A stretch of 64,000 nucleotides of DNA. Origin: a virus. The DNA is taken from the IMG/VR virus record IMGVR_UViG_3300047558_000077, positions 96,001 through 160,000 of that record; one strand, written 5' to 3'. This document shows positions 16,439 to 30,495 of this stretch, one piece after another; position 1 is the stretch's first letter; each line of letters starts with the position of its first letter. The translations under genes were made by a program, and so were the position numbers. The notes beneath the pieces are model-generated. The model saw nothing but the letters and a program-made list of their open reading frames with translations. It was not told the DNA's origin and did no database searches.

Positions 16439-16543
16439 AGGTATGTCAACAGTCTACCTAAAACGTAGACTTAGGGTGCGTCACCCTGTCGCACCTGTTG
16501 ACATACCTTTTTTATTGACTCTTCCGTTCCGCCGTGCTATATT
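16439..16543 (+). promoter_or_regulatory. Composite early promoter module, copy 1
   Basis: 14-bp inverted repeat AGGTATGTCAACAG/CTGTTGACATACCT enclosing AGTCTAC-N7-GTAGACT and TGCGTCA-CCC-TGTCGCA; then TTGACT-17-TATATT; ATG at the expected start site (leaderless). Confidence 0.8.
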
Positions 16544-16549
16544 AAGTCC

Positions 16550-16870
16550 ATGATCACGAAACGCAAGAAGCGGTCCGACCGCAATCACATAATCTACAGC
16601 TTGACTGTAAAGGGTCAGGAATATATCGGTGTTACCCATGTCGAAAACGGCAAGGTTAACAAGTCTTTGGACCGTCGCTGGCGCAAGCATGTCGGTCGTG
16701 CGATGACCGAAGGTAAACTGTGGAAATTGTGCGTGGCTATTCGTAAGCATGGACCTGACAATTTCACTGTCGGCGTTCTGGAAATTGTGCGTGGTAAGTC
16801 TGCGGCTCATATACGTGAGCGGGAACTTATCCGTGAACGTAAGCCTAAACTTAACTCGGATGTGCGCTAA
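16550..16870 (+). CDS. Stand-alone GIY-YIG domain protein
   Basis: IIYSL...EYIGVT...RWRKH...AIRKHG..F...E..LI...LN. Confidence 0.7.
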   Translation: MITKRKKRSDRNHIIYSLTVKGQEYIGVTHVENGKVNKSLDRRWRKHVGRAMTEGKLWKLCVAIRKHGPDNFTVGVLEIVRGKSAAHIRERELIRERKPKLNSDVR

Positions 16871-17109
16871 TGTCTACAACCTTCAATGATCTTATTGGTA
16901 TGCATGACCTTGACCAGAAGGTGATTGTAAAAAAGGCCTTAGAGAGCCTTACGCCCAGAATGCAATTTGTCGTCATTCGTCGGTTTTTTCAGAACCAGAC
17001 CTTGTCGTCAATCGCTGAGGAAATTGGTCTATCTGAGGCTAGACTATATCAAATTGAACGCAAAGCCCTATGCAGCCTAAAGCGTGGCTTTAGGCGAAAC
17101 AAAATCTGA
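16870..17109 (+). CDS. Sigma-70 region 4-like HTH protein (no region 2)
   Basis: ALESLTPRMQFVV.RRF...TLSSIAEEIGLSEARLYQIERKAL..LK. Confidence 0.8.
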   Translation: MSTTFNDLIGMHDLDQKVIVKKALESLTPRMQFVVIRRFFQNQTLSSIAEEIGLSEARLYQIERKALCSLKRGFRRNKI

Positions 17110-18059: not shown

Positions 18060-18251
18060 ATGGAGTTTACTCTCTTCAAGGCTCTAATGATTATTATGTT
18101 TATTCTCACGGCTGTTGGCATGGCATATAATGCTAAAATCATGAATGATTGTATTGATAGTGGCAGTCCAAAAAGCCAGGCGTGTTTCAAGTATAATGTA
18201 ATCAATAACAACATGCATAATCTCAACCTGAACGTAGATAATGGAGAATGA
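18060..18251 (+). CDS. Small membrane/exported protein
   Basis: Hydrophobic N-terminus; GGAGG RBS; Cys pair. Confidence 0.5.
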   Translation: MEFTLFKALMIIMFILTAVGMAYNAKIMNDCIDSGSPKSQACFKYNVINNNMHNLNLNVDNGE

Positions 18252-18405
18252 AAATGGCTAATGTGAAGACCTATAACCTTTCTATTCATCTGAAAGGTAA
18301 TCGCACTCTCACTTTTCGTGGCATTTCTCGTGTAGCGGTTGAACGATATCGCAAGCACTATGAAATCCAAATGGACTATATTTCCGCATCGGTGGAGAAT
18401 CGTTA

Positions 18406-19629
18406 ATGTCTTATCAGTTCGTGCAAGGTCGTGGTGCGCCGCTCAAGATGTGGTGCGAAGGTGTTGAGGTCGAGGACGATGCTCGTACCCAGTTAGAGAA
18501 CATAGCGTCCTTGCCGTTCGTGTATAAGCATGTGGCGGTGATGCCGGATGTTCACTTGGGTAAGGGTGCTACGGTTGGTTCGGTTATCGCTACCAAGGGT
18601 GCGGTAGTTCCGGCGGCTGTTGGTGTTGATATCGGTTGCGGTATGATGGCAGTTCGGTTGTCTCTAAAGGCAAACGACTTGCCGGACAATCTTGCTTCGC
18701 TTCGTTCTCATATCGAGTCCGTAGTGCCGCATGGTCGCACGGACAACGGCGGTAAGAACGACAAGGGAACGTGGCTTGACCGCATTCCGAACTCGGCTTC
18801 AAATGCTTGGTTGTCTTTGTGTAGCCGTTATGATGCTATAGTGGCAAAGCACCCGAAGATTGCGTCTCATAAGACTTTTGAGTTTATGGGCACTCTCGGC
18901 ACGGGCAACCACTTTATCGAGTTGTGTCTGGACGAGGACGATTATGTGTGGGTAATGCTACACTCTGGTTCTCGTGGTGTAGGTAACAAGATCGGTCAGT
19001 ATTTCATCGAGGCTGCTCGCAAGGAGATGGAGCGATATCATATCCTGCCGTATCTGCCGGATAAGGACTTGTCCTATTTGGTAGAGCATACCACGCTATT
19101 CGATGATTATGTTGAAGCAGTATCCTGGGCACAGGAGTTTGCTGCTCTCAACCGTCAGGTGATGATGGATGCGGTGCTTGATGTTCTGCGTCAGCGTTTG
19201 CCGTCGTTTGTCGTGTCTGATGAAAAGGCTGTGAACTGCCACCACAACTATATCTCCAAGGAAAACCACTTTGGAGAAAATGTGTTTGTGACCCGTAAGG
19301 GTGCGGTTCGTGCCCGTGAAGGCGATCTTGGTATCATACCGGGTTCTATGGGCACGGGTTCGTTTATCGTTCGTGGTCTTGGTAATCAGGAGTCGTTTTG
19401 TTCGTGTTCTCATGGTGCTGGTCGTCGTATGTCCCGCAATGCGGCTCGTAAGGCTATCACGCTAGATGATCATATCAAGGCGACCGAGGGTATTGAGTGC
19501 CGTAAGGACGTAGATGTGATTGACGAATCGCCGGCTGCTTACAAGGATATCGGTGCGGTCATGGCTGCACAGGATGACCTTGTTGAGATTGTCCACCGAT
19601 TGCGTCAGGTTCTAAACGTAAAGGGATAA
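18406..19629 (+). CDS. rtcB: RtcB RNA ligase (2',3'-cyclic phosphate/5'-OH)
   Basis: MPDVHLGKG, GVDIGCGM, GTLGTGNHFIE, LHSGSRG, HHNY, RKGA, IPGSMG, SHGAGR, DESPAAYK. Confidence 0.96.
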   Translation: MSYQFVQGRGAPLKMWCEGVEVEDDARTQLENIASLPFVYKHVAVMPDVHLGKGATVGSVIATKGAVVPAAVGVDIGCGMMAVRLSLKANDLPDNLASLRSHIESVVPHGRTDNGGKNDKGTWLDRIPNSASNAWLSLCSRYDAIVAKHPKIASHKTFEFMGTLGTGNHFIELCLDEDDYVWVMLHSGSRGVGNKIGQYFIEAARKEMERYHILPYLPDKDLSYLVEHTTLFDDYVEAVSWAQEFAALNRQVMMDAVLDVLRQRLPSFVVSDEKAVNCHHNYISKENHFGENVFVTRKGAVRAREGDLGIIPGSMGTGSFIVRGLGNQESFCSCSHGAGRRMSRNAARKAITLDDHIKATEGIECRKDVDVIDESPAAYKDIGAVMAAQDDLVEIVHRLRQVLNVKG

Positions 19630-19631
19630 AA

Positions 19632-19748
19632 ATGAAACGCAAGAATGTAAACCCAGTGGCTAAGGCGTTACGTCTTGGTGTATGTAAACCTAAGGTGATT
19701 GTAGACAGGAAAACTGTATACAATCGCAAAAGGCTACCAAAACTATAG
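19632..19748 (+). CDS. 38-aa basic peptide, ArfA-like (not in ORF track)
   Basis: MKRKNVNPVAKALRLGVCKPKVIVDRKTVYNRKRLPKL*; starts 3 nt after rtcB stop. Confidence 0.5.
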   Translation: MKRKNVNPVAKALRLGVCKPKVIVDRKTVYNRKRLPKL

Positions 19749-19907
19749 ACTATAGTGACTTGGTGTTCTAATATCTCAAAAATACCCCTTCAAGGGCAAC
19801 CATGCCCTGTCCGAAAAATCGATAGGAAGCACCAGGAGACTTTTCACGGTCTTCTGGTGCTATAGTCTCTTCCAGACCTCAAAACTCTCCTGGCGTCTCC
19901 TGGAGAT

Positions 19908-20007
19908 TGTAAACAGTCTACCAACTCTATAGACTTTAGGTGCGACATCCTGTCGCACCTGTTGACATACGATTTCTCTTGCTTCTTCCGTTCCGTTGTG
20001 CTACTAT
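19908..20007 (+). promoter_or_regulatory. Composite early promoter module, copy 3
   Basis: TGTAAACA, AGTCTA-N9-TAGACT, AGGTGCGACA-TCC-TGTCGCACCT, TGTTGACA, TTGCTT-CTTCCGTTCCGTTGTGC-TACTAT. Confidence 0.8.
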
Positions 20008-20033
20008 ATCCGCATAATGTTGAAAGGAACAAA

Positions 20034-20675
20034 ATGATCAATCTCTCCAAGGCCTCTAAAATGCCTGCTAAGTCCTGGTCGCTTCAAGCGGGTTCGACCT
20101 GTCCGGGTTCTATCGATCCCGTTACCAAGCAGCCGCTTCCTGTTTGTGCGGGTTGTTATGCAAAAGATGGCATGTATAATATGCCAAACGTCAAGTCGGT
20201 TCGTGACGCTAATCGAGAAGATTGGAAGCGTGCCGAATGGGTCGATGAAATGGTTGCTTTGCTTAAAAAGCAAAAGTATTTCCGTTGGTTCGACTCGGGA
20301 GACGTTTATCATCCGGCTCTTGCTTTCAAAATCTTTCTGGTTATGCAAAAGACTCCGCATGTGAAGCATTGGCTTCCTACCAAGTCTTATAACATTCCGA
20401 AGATCCGTGCTATTCTTGATCAGATGAAAATGCTTCCGAATGCATCTGTTCGATATTCGTCTCCGTCTATTACGGGTGAATTTAATAGCGAACATGGCTC
20501 CACTGTTATCGCATATGCCGATGATGAAACGACCGCTACGGTCTGTGGTGCTTATTCTCGGAATGGCAAGTGTGGCGATTGCCGTGCTTGCTGGGATACG
20601 AATGTTAAGGTTGTCGCTTATCCCGCACATGGTCGTCGTATGATGTCCAAAGTCCGTAAAATGAAAGCAGCCTAA
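20034..20675 (+). CDS. Gp88-like Cys-rich phage protein (possible Fe-S / radical-SAM-like)
   Basis: SKMP..SWSL.A..TCPG...VCAGCYA; FRWFDSGD; HWLPT; CGDCRACW; GAAAGGA RBS. Confidence 0.7.
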   Translation: MINLSKASKMPAKSWSLQAGSTCPGSIDPVTKQPLPVCAGCYAKDGMYNMPNVKSVRDANREDWKRAEWVDEMVALLKKQKYFRWFDSGDVYHPALAFKIFLVMQKTPHVKHWLPTKSYNIPKIRAILDQMKMLPNASVRYSSPSITGEFNSEHGSTVIAYADDETTATVCGAYSRNGKCGDCRACWDTNVKVVAYPAHGRRMMSKVRKMKAA

Positions 20676-21331: not shown

Positions 21332-21432
21332 ATGTCAACAGTCTACCGACTTTATAGAATATGGATGCGTCACCCTGTCGCACCTGTTGACATACCTTTT
21401 CGCTTGCAATCTGTCCTTACTTGTGTTATCCT
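21332..21432 (+). promoter_or_regulatory. Composite early promoter module, copy 4
   Basis: ATGTCAACAG...CTGTTGACAT inverted repeat enclosing GTCTA-N9-TAGA and TGCGTCA-CCC-TGTCGCA; TTGCAA-17-TATCCT. Confidence 0.78.
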
Positions 21433-28488: not shown

Positions 28489-29955
28489 ATGATTATCACT
28501 CGTAACTGGATACGTGACGACATACTCATATACACCGAGAAAGCCACTGGCGGTCTTCGTGTGTATGGTAAGAAAGACATATGCGAGTTTATCAATTATT
28601 GGAAACTGAAACTACTATCACATAATGCAAAGCCTGGTGATAAATTAGGATTTACGTTTGAGAACACCGAGATTCATTCTTATGCTCTTATGTTTGCAGC
28701 ATTTGAACTTGGGTTACGTGTTGTGGTTTTACATCGACCAAGCACAGAGAAGGAATGTTTGGCACCAAAAAGCAATGCTCATTTACCTCTAGACTTCTAT
28801 GTCTATCTCACATCATACCTAAATCGTTCAACTACTGTCACGGGTGTCAATCATTATCGAAAGCATTCTAAAGTTTGCATTAGCTATGGTCCTATGGAAT
28901 GGACCGAGTTTAGTGAAGACTTTAGATCAAATGAAGAAACACCTATAACAGTCAAACCCGACGATGTTGCTTTTTGTTGTAACAGTAGCGGTACAACCGG
29001 AGATCCTAAACTCATATCATACACACACGAGTTTCTTTACAACCTATGCACACATAACTGGCAAGACTTAGGTTATAAAGACGATGATACCATTGTGCAT
29101 CTGTCTTCCCTAAATCACGGTGGAGTCATAACTTTACTATTACCGGCACTAAGAACTTGCAAGACACACTTCTTTTATAACTACATCTTTGCAGCATCAT
29201 ATGATCGTCTTCTATCATTCATAGATGTTTGTCTAGATTATAATGTGTCAAAAATATTCTTTGCAAACGGTGGGGAGCTGAATACGCTCATTGATCACTT
29301 AATAGAAACCGATAATAAACTATCCAATGTTAGTGCCTACATTCTTTCGTTTATCAGTCCTAGATGGTCAGATACTATTCGTGATCAAAGACTAAAGGAG
29401 ATTGTTAGCGTTTTTGGTTGTAGTGAGATATGTGGTCCTGTCTTTATGCCTAGACTAGACAATAGCAATGTTGATGGCTTTGATCCAAAGTTACTAGGCA
29501 AGCCAATGACAGGCTTCTATGAAACAAAGATCATTAATAACAGAATACACACGAAACTAAAAGACGGAGGAGAGTTTGTCTTTGATGATGTTGTAGAAGA
29601 TAGAGTAGAAGGCGCTTATTTCATATCAAAGAATAGACTACAGAAGATCAATGATGTGGATATCAATCCACTGGACATTATAGAGATAGTAGAAAGATAT
29701 GTATCACGGTATGAGTTTGAGTTATATGTGGACGAAATCTATAACGAGATATACATCATAACTTCCAATGCCAATCTTGATAGAGGGAAGATAAGACAAG
29801 ACATATCTGCATTCTATCTGGACAAGATAACTCTAACCGATATCATATACGAAAAGGAACTATATGATACTCGGATCACTCACAAAGCGGAAAGAGATAA
29901 ACTATCACACATAGTTGAAAGATTCCGCTTGACATTTCAGAATAACTCTGTATAA
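28489..29955 (+). CDS. Adenylate-forming (ANL/AMP-binding) enzyme
   Basis: P-loop NSSGTTGDPK; L.HGG; FGCSE; A10-like K..R..L near C-terminus. Confidence 0.72.
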   Translation: MIITRNWIRDDILIYTEKATGGLRVYGKKDICEFINYWKLKLLSHNAKPGDKLGFTFENTEIHSYALMFAAFELGLRVVVLHRPSTEKECLAPKSNAHLPLDFYVYLTSYLNRSTTVTGVNHYRKHSKVCISYGPMEWTEFSEDFRSNEETPITVKPDDVAFCCNSSGTTGDPKLISYTHEFLYNLCTHNWQDLGYKDDDTIVHLSSLNHGGVITLLLPALRTCKTHFFYNYIFAASYDRLLSFIDVCLDYNVSKIFFANGGELNTLIDHLIETDNKLSNVSAYILSFISPRWSDTIRDQRLKEIVSVFGCSEICGPVFMPRLDNSNVDGFDPKLLGKPMTGFYETKIINNRIHTKLKDGGEFVFDDVVEDRVEGAYFISKNRLQKINDVDINPLDIIEIVERYVSRYEFELYVDEIYNEIYIITSNANLDRGKIRQDISAFYLDKITLTDIIYEKELYDTRITHKAERDKLSHIVERFRLTFQNNSV

Positions 29956-29961
29956 TAAATA
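29929..29961 (+). promoter_or_regulatory. tmRNA promoter (sigma70 plus overlapping late-like box)
   Basis: TTGACA-16 bp-TATAAT, overlapping AATAAATA. Confidence 0.7.
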
Positions 29962-30252
29962 CTATGCCGAGGTCGTTGAGAGGAACGGCATAGACGTTTC
30001 GGACGGGAGTTCGACTCTCCCCACCTCCACCATAGGTACACATTTTGAGGTCTTGGTCGTTACCAGCATGGCAAAAACGGCGACAATGTGTATCTTTGAT
30101 GGGGGTGTAACGGGTATCGACGGGCGTAGTAAGGGTTCAAGGAGACCAAAGGCAAATTGCAGGTGCAGCAAACGACAATGTACCATTTGATTACGCTCTA
30201 GCAGCATAATCATTGGGGTGGCGACTTCCCTAGAAACAGAAAAGTCGCATTT
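29962..30252 (+). ncRNA. ssrA: Circularly permuted two-piece tmRNA; tag (A)ANDNVPFDYALAA
   Basis: T-arm GGGAG-TTCGACT-CTCCC and CACCTCC-ACCA (30022-30032) precede the 5' acceptor strand GGGGGTG (30101-30107), giving a 7-bp stem with G3:U; tag frame 30165-30209 ends in ALAA-TAA; outer boundaries approximate. Confidence 0.93.
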
Positions 30253-30267
30253 TCAAAAAGGATCTAT

Positions 30268-30495
30268 GTGATGACACCGGATGATATTCAAAAGTTTAGT
30301 ATGGAGATCGAGGAACTGGTCTATATGAAGGACATTCCTTATATTGATGCTGTTGTGGAATACTGTGAGATGACCGGGTTTGAAATAGAAACTGCGGCCA
30401 AATTAGTCTCCGGCGTTCTCAAATCTAAAATCAAACTCGAAGCAGAAAACCTCCACTACCTCAAAAAGTCAAACACCTCACAACTTCCTCTCTAA
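30268..30495 (+). CDS. gp33: Late promoter transcription co-activator
   Basis: FS.EIE..V....YIDAVV.YCE..E.E..AKL...LK.KI..EA..L.YL. Confidence 0.85.
   Translation: MMTPDDIQKFSMEIEELVYMKDIPYIDAVVEYCEMTGFEIETAAKLVSGVLKSKIKLEAENLHYLKKSNTSQLPL

Follow-up and report, generated by a model that had tools for sequence, protein, structure and literature searches.

The 38-residue peptide encoded just downstream of rtcB in this phage is, on balance probably, the product of a genuine early gene and a minimal member of the ArfA superfamily, belonging to its DUF7230 branch; by analogy with ArfA it would act in ribosome rescue, and its companion in the genome would be a phage tmRNA rather than rtcB. The window (the whole stretch of 64,000 nucleotides that was analysed) comes from a T4-like freshwater phage with a genome of 172 kb and 40.8% GC. 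The features that matter here, all on the plus strand, are as follows.

18248..18406, plus strand: conserved early ORF of 52 aa, the syntenic anchor 5' of the peptide gene (52-92% identity across relatives; no Pfam match)
18406..19629, plus strand: rtcB, RNA 3'-phosphate/5'-OH ligase, a GC-rich accessory insertion (Pfam RtcB, E 6e-128, whole model)
19632..19748, plus strand: gene for the 38-aa basic peptide, a DUF7230 member, short and ArfA-like, without GKG and KH
19697..19725, plus strand: hairpin within the peptide coding sequence, in the VIVDRKTVYNR codons (RNA fold)
19749..19938, plus strand: strongly structured spacer 3' of the peptide gene, including a 13-14 bp hairpin at 19827-19861
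19939..19967, plus strand: repeated module of a hairpin and TTGACA, which opens the next early transcription unit
29925..30300, plus strand: permuted (alpha-type) phage tmRNA with the tag AANDNVPFDYALAA (ARAGORN, Rfam)

The stop codon of rtcB (TAA, 19627-19629) is separated by 2 nt from the ATG of the peptide gene (19632) on the same strand. The sequence AAGGGA, 6 nt 5' of this ATG, is a plausible ribosome-binding site, and the ORF ends in its own TAG (19746-19748). In translation the peptide contains the stretches NPVAKAL and VIVDRKTVYNRK and no KGKGS, and 13 of its 38 residues are Lys or Arg, which confirms the original prediction of a basic ORF with these stretches just 3' of rtcB. It matches the Pfam family DUF7230 (PF23876), a family of unknown function, with 31.2 bits over residues 7-34 (gathering cut-off 27); in a scan of the phage genome this model gives a single match, at 29.8 bits. 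On an HMM built from 141 sequences of the family, the peptide scores 42 bits. There are 51 relatives among viral contigs, and an exhaustive HMMER search of 1.8 billion proteins found at least 619 cluster representatives at E<=1e-3. Pairwise dN/dS values among close relatives are 0.04-0.32, with a single low-divergence pair at 0.74. Given the DUF7230 score, the viral relatives, the cluster representatives and the low dN/dS, the ORF is more than a chance one: it is a real gene under purifying selection. P0128 headed the matches of the exhaustive search, but the protein (724 aa, 10 stretches) consists of tandem repeats, with a weak unit of the NPLPSALR type, and was taken as spurious.

Existing annotation says little about this family. 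PHROGs holds solely families of unknown function (phrog_20887), the ESM Atlas solely unnamed or DUF7230 clusters with recognition under the useful mark, and an NCBIfam scan of 17 family members gave no meaningful family. Neither the window peptide nor the family member P0149 matched GenBank phages in tblastn; the more typical member P0148 was needed as the query for matches there.

ArfA is an RF2-dependent alternative ribosome-rescue factor of beta- and gammaproteobacteria, for which ribosome-bound structures are available (5MDV, 5H5U, 5U4I and 5MGP), and its KGKGS loop sits within the mRNA channel. The program hhalign was used to compare 142 members of the peptide family with 13 ArfA sequences, and gave a probability of 90.6%, a score of 37.6 and an E-value of 1.3e-6 over 38 columns, corresponding to ArfA residues 8-48, with a lone 3-residue gap at GKG. 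The ArfA alignment represents only five divergent lineages, because a scan for ArfA loci yielded only near-identical enterobacterial copies. As controls, 100 column shuffles of the ArfA alignment scored at most 13.7, and the reversed alignment 13.4. The HMM of the family gives E. coli ArfA 23.5 bits, against a best score of 8.9 among 3573 six-frame decoy ORFs. When the family profile was run against 177,635 PDB sequences there were six matches at E<=1, all of them ArfA chains (5U4I, 5H5U, 5MDV, 5MDW, 7OJ0 and 5MGP; E 3e-4 to 2e-3). A narrow profile of 17 sequences (A2), run against the PDB, did not reach ArfA at E<=10; its matches were coiled-coil designs and uL16, at E>0.7. The 142-sequence profile recovered ArfA.

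The two families are also joined by bridging sequences, which combine the NP[IV]AK motif with KGKGS. One of these, P0255, was recovered with the family profile (E 9.8e-7 over 1.8 billion proteins), and three others (L238, L239 and L254) with the NP[IV]AK pattern; all four lie above the Pfam ArfA cut-off and score 42-48 bits on the family HMM. By itself, the window peptide has no match to Pfam ArfA (PF03889) at E<=10, nor does anything else in the phage genome, and on an HMM of ArfA plus five bridging sequences it reaches only 6.8 bits (rank 4, E 1.2). Since the peptide alone misses the ArfA models, its link to ArfA runs through family-level profiles and transitivity. The likeness to ArfA that had been proposed, with a profile search as the check, thus stands for the family, by hhalign with its shuffles, by the PDB and by the bridges, and fails for the single peptide.

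It could be argued that the likeness is convergent, and that DUF7230 is an unrelated basic mini-protein that binds nucleic acids or associates with the ribosome. The sequences are indeed short, lysine-rich and of low complexity, and HMMER gives no direct match from the peptide to ArfA. We nevertheless regard this as very unlikely, given that shuffling of columns with composition preserved, or reversal, abolishes the hhalign signal, that the whole PDB returns ArfA only, that intermediate sequences fall in both families, and that the Asn, Pro, aromatic, Q-R-V, K-K and Y-x-R-K matches occur in the same order with a single indel. On these comparisons of sequence, the DUF7230 family is homologous to ArfA.

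ArfA (YhdL; PF03889) is likewise a small basic peptide, and a residue-by-residue comparison provides clues as to how the window peptide might work. The family is collinear with ArfA over residues 8-48 of the latter, from the Asn through a short helix, a Pro, the hydrophobic position at F25, Q-R-V-x and K-K to Y-x-R-K, and the length of the window peptide after the core corresponds to the ordered part of ArfA, about 46-48 residues (PMC8012679). At ArfA Phe25 the window peptide has a Cys (Cys18), followed by K-P-K-V-I; of 132 family members, 131 have Y, F, L or C at the aligned position, and the family consensus continues with Q-R-V-V. Where ArfA has its KGKGS loop the window peptide reads DRKTVYNRK, a deletion of 2-3 residues having removed GKG, and in place of the KH motif there is the tail RLPKL (Y-x-R-K-x-K-H is found in 25 of 142 family members). 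Before the conserved Asn there are 6 residues compared to 13 in ArfA, making the N-terminus 7 shorter, and the residue aligned with ArfA A18 is a Lys, although the register is uncertain in that helix. The window peptide differs further in being phage-borne and in falling outside the Pfam model of ArfA.

By analogy with ArfA, whose functional roles for F25, Q27-E30 and KH are taken from PMC8012679, the C-terminal half, rich in Lys and Arg (VYNRKRLPKL), would insert into the mRNA entry channel, left empty when a ribosome stalls at the broken 3' end of an mRNA. The conserved middle, in which x-[QP]-[KR]-[VI]-[VI] comes after a hydrophobic residue and which aligns with ArfA F25 and the β-strand Q27-E30, would recruit a class-I release factor, probably RF2, leading to hydrolysis of the peptidyl-tRNA and freeing of the ribosome. 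For the phage, the benefit would be a supply of free ribosomes at times when non-stop mRNAs arise through host or phage nucleases. We infer the rescue activity as a whole from this analogy, and with it the binding to the ribosome, the recruitment and identity of the release factor, and the benefit to the phage. A complex prediction for E. coli RF2 with the family alignment gave a score of 0.01, and was counted neither for nor against.

A peptide of this kind might instead fill the empty mRNA channel without activating a release factor. Its role would then be to block or modulate, for instance by barring host tmRNA-SmpB or the host's rescue factors from stalled ribosomes, or by favouring the phage tmRNA. 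Consistent with this, the peptide has neither the GKG loop nor the KH motif and lacks most of the ArfA N-terminus, the phage supplies its own tmRNA, and the residue aligned with A18 is bulky; the A18T variant of ArfA remains able to bind and to recruit RF2, yet does not activate it (PMC8012679). However, the best-conserved stretch of the family is the one that aligns with the RF2-contacting segment of ArfA (F25, Q27-E30), and not the basic tail alone. We consider this alternative unlikely.

The gene design of the chromosomal relatives also bears on this point. Four chromosomal members (L236, from Pseudaquidulcibacter saccharophilus, and L234, L252 and L237) have an intrinsic terminator within the ORF, like E. 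coli arfA, so that the self-limiting design of arfA is found in members from SAR11 and Hyphomonadaceae; this fits a back-up rescue factor, and argues against a blocker. The design of a terminator or hairpin within the ORF may also occur in phage kin (L028, L031), and in six relatives (L025-L028, L031 and L034) the peptide ORF runs into the hairpin of the hairpin-TTGACA module before its stop. The window ORF is different, its TAG preceding the downstream hairpins. Whereas the ArfA gene gives a non-stop mRNA under tmRNA control, non-stop control is not predicted for the window gene, because it has its own stop codon. With this stop ahead of the downstream hairpins, and with a probable co-transcription with rtcB, constitutive early synthesis would be expected, and the peptide would thereby escape the tmRNA-dependent control that governs bacterial arfA.

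The RNA around the gene is strongly structured. The region 19600-19990 folds with z -6.5 against shuffles and contains three inverted repeats (I1-I3). The hairpin in the 3' spacer is not a typical intrinsic terminator, since no T-run follows it. The hairpin-TTGACA module occurs three times in the window (16475, 19939 and 21364), against a chance expectation of none. The coding stretch of the peptide core has a folding energy of -27.9 kcal/mol, compared to -16.2 for synonymous recodings (z -3.0). The hairpin in the coding sequence was considered as a feature of the family and rejected, as it is strong in some lineages and absent from the SAR11 copies.

We now turn to rtcB. The original prediction described a complete rtcB, richer in GC than the core genes, and this is borne out: the product of 407 aa matches Pfam RtcB (PF01139) end to end, with 428 bits over model positions 1-426, and the translation contains HGAGR, the stretch bearing the guanylylated histidine of the catalytic motif. 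The gene has 51.1% GC, against 40.8% for the genome and 41-43% for its flanks, while the peptide gene is genome-like at 40.2%. The best cellular matches of RtcB are 61-71% identical and mainly from Alphaproteobacteria. Among the viral loci of the peptide family, only 14 of 51 carry rtcB, all in one sub-lineage, and in three close kin (L024, L031 and L034) the peptide gene directly follows the 52-aa upstream ORF with no rtcB between them. The presence of rtcB is an indel: this GC-rich gene was acquired horizontally and inserted between the peptide gene and the gene upstream of it.

It had been proposed that the two genes make up a ligase-plus-rescue unit. RtcB2-PrfH is a ribosome-repair/rescue module that pairs an RNA ligase with a rescue factor, and the present locus shares with it an RtcB ligase gene adjoining a gene proposed to act on stalled ribosomes. 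A dedicated two-gene unit of this type, in which RtcB reseals cleaved tRNA or rRNA and the peptide frees the ribosomes that this damage has halted, would account for the 2-nt gap on a shared strand, for the order being kept in 14 related contigs, for both functions addressing RNA damage, and for the presence of both genes in the Erythrobacter phage vB_EliS-L02. Against it, the spacing among these contigs varies from 4 to ~690 bp, the kin without an intervening rtcB keep the peptide gene, and the two genes differ in GC content (51% and 40%). In vB_EliS-L02 the rtcB and the ArfA-type gene are more than 60 kb apart. A relative that is 94% complete (G210) has the peptide and the tmRNA but rtcB nowhere, and no rtcB lies within 4 kb of any of 37 bacterial family members. 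Three other rtcB phages that were examined have no such peptide adjoining rtcB, and phiCbK and Lacusarx have rtcB and no member of the peptide family. Unlike in RtcB2-PrfH, the neighbour is a 38-aa peptide and not a release-factor homologue, and no PrfH or RF-1 domain was found in the whole 172-kb genome at E<=1. The comparative data weigh strongly against an obligatory coupling of RtcB and the peptide, and we consider the dedicated unit quite unlikely; the linkage that had been put forward as a check is seen in one sub-lineage of the viral loci and is otherwise not conserved. As judged from these loci, the appearance of an RtcB-Arf operon is an accident of insertion, and rtcB is no obligatory partner. 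It is worth adding that gene 145 of phiCbK, a 48-aa ORF 3 nt after rtcB, encodes a hydrophobic peptide and was rejected as not Arf-like.

The favoured reading, a minimal ArfA-type factor, has a different companion. The window also encodes a permuted tmRNA, identified against Rfam as tmRNA_permuted (95 bits, gathering 47) and alpha_tmRNA (56.2 bits, gathering 50), and a tmRNA is found in the relatives G210 and G212. The conserved pair is thus the ArfA-like peptide and the phage tmRNA, and not the peptide and rtcB. As the genome carries 24 tRNAs beside rtcB, the tmRNA and the ArfA-like peptide, it is plausible, more broadly, that the phage is equipped with a set of tools against RNA damage.

Some other systems are similar. 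ArfT of Francisella and BrfA of Bacillus are likewise small, release-factor-dependent rescue peptides with basic C-terminal tails. For ArfT, as for the window gene, a non-stop mRNA origin is not predicted. ArfT, with its repeated helices and a tail of the KKGGSTNKK type (PMC6299226, PMC6514570), belongs to another family, and no sequence relation to the window peptide was found. Basic peptides of this size could serve other ribosome- or RNA-binding purposes. The closest parallels in phages are gp30 of pelagiphage HTVC027P, for which a canonical ArfA domain is annotated and expression reported (PMC12753301), and an unannotated ORF of vB_EliS-L02 (~144.06-144.2 kb). Both belong to the ArfA superfamily and are encoded by phages that infect Alphaproteobacteria, and the latter opens with an NPIA-type motif, as in the family of the window peptide. 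Unlike the window peptide, both keep KGKGS and KH and lie above the Pfam ArfA cut-off (31.1 bits).

According to PMC8012679, ArfA occurs only in some of the beta- and gammaproteobacteria. We see an even chance that DUF7230 is a large, unrecognised, GKG-less branch of ArfA acting in release-factor-dependent rescue, chromosomal in several lineages thought to be ArfA-free (SAR11, SAR86, Caulobacterales/Hyphomonadaceae and some CPR bacteria) and repeatedly captured by phages. The carriers would be T4-like phages of Acinetobacter, phages of Rhizobium, Sinorhizobium and Agrobacterium, of Roseobacter and Pelagibacter, and the present freshwater lineage. Beside the phage-encoded tmRNA, the peptide would then form a constitutive second route of rescue, no longer dependent on failure of the tmRNA. 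If DUF7230 peptides are working factors of the ArfA type, release-factor-dependent rescue would be much more widespread, reaching abundant aquatic Alphaproteobacteria and many phages, among them cultured phages of Acinetobacter and of rhizobia. Cultured phages with a family member are ZZ1 and Acj9 of Acinetobacter, P9VFCI of Rhizobium and vB_EliS-L02 of Erythrobacter. Neither the KGKGS loop nor the KH motif would then be needed for this mechanism, and a minimal rescue peptide would have ~32 residues. Large phages would carry their own ribosome-rescue equipment, a tmRNA and an Arf-like peptide, presumably to maintain the supply of ribosomes while phage nucleases or host defence RNases cut mRNAs.

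The original prediction described a complete, GC-rich rtcB followed by a basic 38-aa ORF, and every element of that observation is correct. The features of this part of the window are as follows.

Features of the window (positions, strand, description)
16475-16503, 19939-19967 and 21364-21392, +, three copies of a putative early promoter module, each a hairpin with a 10-bp stem followed by TGTTGACA
16550-17109, +, small early genes for a 106-aa GIY-YIG protein and then a 79-aa sigma-70 region 4 protein
18406-19629, +, rtcB, a full-length match to the Pfam RtcB model (E 6e-128)
19632-19748, +, 38-codon peptide ORF, 2 nt past the rtcB stop, with a plausible AAGGGA ribosome-binding site ahead
19697-19725, +, hairpin within the peptide coding sequence, its Ile-Val and Tyr-Asn codons being reverse complements
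19749-19938, +, structured spacer of 190 nt after the peptide gene (fold z -6.5 for 19600-19990)
19962-20675, +, GP88-family / DUF7227 protein containing Cys-rich motifs, immediately 3' of a promoter module
28489-29955, +, AMP-binding (adenylate-forming) enzyme of 488 aa, its gene ending shortly before that of the tmRNA
29925-30300, +, permuted alpha-type tmRNA with the ARAGORN tag AANDNVPFDYALAA

Judged by its sequence and that of its relatives, the peptide ORF is a real gene. The product contains 13 Lys/Arg and one acidic residue, and scores 31.2 bits against Pfam DUF7230 (curated cut-off 27), this being the only ORF in the phage genome to match that family. Seven near-identical proteins are found in a collection of 5.8 billion, relatives are encoded at 51 IMG/VR loci, and a 17-sequence profile, run exhaustively with HMMER, gave 619 cluster representatives at E<=1e-3. 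Among close relatives dN/dS is 0.04-0.32 (0.74 for one low-divergence pair), with synonymous changes greatly exceeding replacements. The family core is N-P-[VI]-A-K-x-L-R-x-P-x-[YFLC]-x-[QP]-[KR]-[VI]-V-x-x-K-K-x-Y-x-R-K. The top match of the exhaustive search, P0128 (724 aa, metagenomic), is a tandem-repeat protein with 10 repeats that are only weakly NP..AL-like, and is almost certainly unrelated.

Use of tblastn with a typical family member identified 98 GenBank phage records, all hypothetical or unannotated, including Acinetobacter T4-like, Rhizobium, Sinorhizobium, Agrobacterium, Roseobacter and Pelagibacter phages. In SAR11 single-cell genomes the DUF7230 gene lies directly after polA, and the family is therefore cellular as well as viral. 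No mention of DUF7230 was found in the literature searched. A canonical ArfA domain has been annotated in pelagiphage HTVC027P, with expression reported (PMC12753301); ArfT is a separate family from that of the window peptide (PMC6299226, PMC6514570).

The window peptide itself has no Pfam ArfA match in a direct sequence-to-profile search, and reaches only 6.8 bits on an HMM of ArfA plus five bridging sequences, these being sequences that belong to both families. For the family as a whole, hhalign was used to compare 142 members (the window peptide heading the alignment) with 13 ArfA sequences, comprising E. coli ArfA, eight other enteric sequences and four divergent ones that the Pfam model had identified in genomes. 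The families align with 90.6% probability (E 1.3e-6) over 38 columns, covering ArfA residues 8-48, with a single gap of three residues at GKG. The score of 37.6 compares with at most 13.7 for 100 composition-keeping column shuffles of the ArfA alignment and 13.4 for a reversed alignment. When a family HMM was built without the bridging protein, E. coli ArfA scored 23.5 bits and the other ArfAs 4-29 bits, compared with a maximum of 8.9 bits among 3573 decoy ORFs drawn from all six frames of the phage genome. Against 177,635 distinct PDB sequences, this profile has six matches at E<=1, all of them ArfA chains of ribosome complexes (E 3e-4 to 2e-3).

Sequences intermediate between the two families were also identified. 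P0255 was retrieved with the family profile (E 9.8e-7 over 1.8 billion proteins), and an NP[IV]AK-type pattern identified MAG-encoded peptides from Pelagibacteraceae (L238, L239) and Rhodospirillaceae (L254). All four have loops of the KKGK[GK] type; they score 26-36 bits on the Pfam ArfA model, above its cut-off, and 42-48 bits on the family HMM. Erythrobacter phage vB_EliS-L02 encodes a 56-aa ORF (L259:1453-1623, record ~144.06-144.2 kb) that passes the ArfA cut-off with 31.1 bits and has KGKGSY and KH as well as an NPIA-type start; no feature is annotated at this site in GenBank. DUF7230 and ArfA thus form a single continuum, with a 3-residue indel as the main difference between the two Pfam families. 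The proposed ArfA-like character, for which a profile search had been suggested as one check, thus holds with family profiles and bridging sequences, and fails for the window peptide searched alone. Supported at the family level, this reading makes the peptide a new, shortened variant of an ArfA-type factor, with a predicted activity.

In ArfA, F25 packs on RF2 strands beta4 and beta5, Q27-E30 add a beta-strand to RF2, and the basic C-terminal end enters the mRNA entry channel as a loop, its KH motif occupying a pocket there; some 46-48 residues of ArfA are ordered when it is ribosome-bound, and a 40-residue truncation has no activity (PMC8012679). Opposite F25, 131 of 132 family members have Y, F, L or C, the residue of the window peptide being Cys18. 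At the RF2-strand position the family consensus is Q-R-V-V, whereas the window peptide has P-K-V-I. The peptide continues five residues past the R-K pair aligned with ArfA R41-K42, and so ends at about ArfA residue 47, just beyond the ordered part of ArfA and past the point of the inactive truncation. The KH motif, present in ArfA register in 25/142 family members, is missing from the window peptide. There are six residues ahead of the conserved Asn, and the residue aligned with ArfA A18 is Lys, the register of the short helix being uncertain by one position.

It had also been proposed that rtcB and the peptide form a ligase-plus-rescue unit, comparable to RtcB2-PrfH. As a conserved unit, this coupling is unsupported. 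The relatives share a syntenic backbone, in the order 52-aa ORF (18248), rtcB (optional), peptide gene, GP88-family gene (optional) and subsequent early genes; like rtcB, the GP88-family gene is present in some relatives and absent from others. Among the relatives rtcB is confined to L009-L022, at 4 to about 690 bp from the peptide gene. In the loci with the most similar flanking genes (L024, L031, L034, with 92% identity in the upstream ORF), that ORF is immediately followed by the peptide gene. Relative G210, 94% complete, encodes the peptide and tmRNA without an RtcB domain anywhere; no rtcB flanks the gene in the more distant viral loci or in any of 37 bacterial loci. Three cultured rtcB phages were compared: phiCbK and Lacusarx have no peptide-family member, and in vB_EliS-L02 >60 kb separate ArfA from rtcB. 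Neither an RF-1/PrfH domain nor SmpB was found in the phage genome. The rtcB gene has 51.1% GC, against 40.8% for the whole genome, and its nearest cellular relatives (61-71% identity) are mostly alphaproteobacterial; the peptide gene, unlike rtcB, is phage-like at 40.2%. The 10-point GC excess and the comparative loci together show that rtcB was acquired horizontally, inserted next to an already existing peptide gene.

The source IMG/VR record (172 kb, rated complete by CheckV), of which the window spans bases 96001-160000, is a T4-like phage with gp59, gp32, DNA ligase and PhoH genes at 24-33.5 kb of the window and, outside the window, 24 clustered tRNA genes that serve most amino acids (genome C1:75119-83779). 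Its tmRNA exceeds the gathering scores of two Rfam models (95 and 56 bits), and is kept in two relatives, G210 and G212. Since the phage has no SmpB, the tmRNA must use that of the host. Two elements related to rescue, tmRNA and the Arf-like peptide, are thus present in this lineage, with rtcB added in some members. The tmRNA type and the affinities of rtcB suggest an alphaproteobacterial host.

In bacterial arfA, a hairpin/terminator within the ORF leads to expression from a non-stop mRNA (PMC8012679), and our analysis reproduced this hairpin in E. coli arfA. Four chromosomal DUF7230 genes from Caulobacterales/Hyphomonadaceae share the design, with hydrophobic tails and an intrinsic terminator in the ORF: L236 (L236:3986-4147; Pseudaquidulcibacter isolate, with a phosphate transporter on one side and a glycosidase on the other), L234 and L252 (Hyphomonadaceae), and L237. 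Each has a GC-rich hairpin a few codons ahead of the stop, followed in 3/4 by a U-run. In phage kin L025-L028, L031 and L034, the ORF has no stop until past the hairpin of the next promoter module. In the window gene a TAG precedes every downstream hairpin, and it should therefore be translated from ordinary mRNA, unlike bacterial arfA. Its coding core folds more stably than synonymous recodings, by 11.7 kcal/mol (z -3.0); this is also seen in L234, L236 and the relative locus L017, and not in the SAR11 copies.

It is worth adding that the promoter-module hairpin is part of the Arf-like ORF in some relatives, where it is read in two different frames. The 190-nt spacer contains nested inverted repeats and several CTATAG palindromes with no T-run, and ends in one of the three hairpin-plus-TTGACA modules, which are probably early promoters. 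The spacer may act as a processing site, a terminator or a small RNA. Among the small early genes, the 79-aa protein consists of little beyond sigma-70 region 4 (E 1e-11), and is possibly an anti-sigma factor, a sigma mimic or a sigma appropriator.
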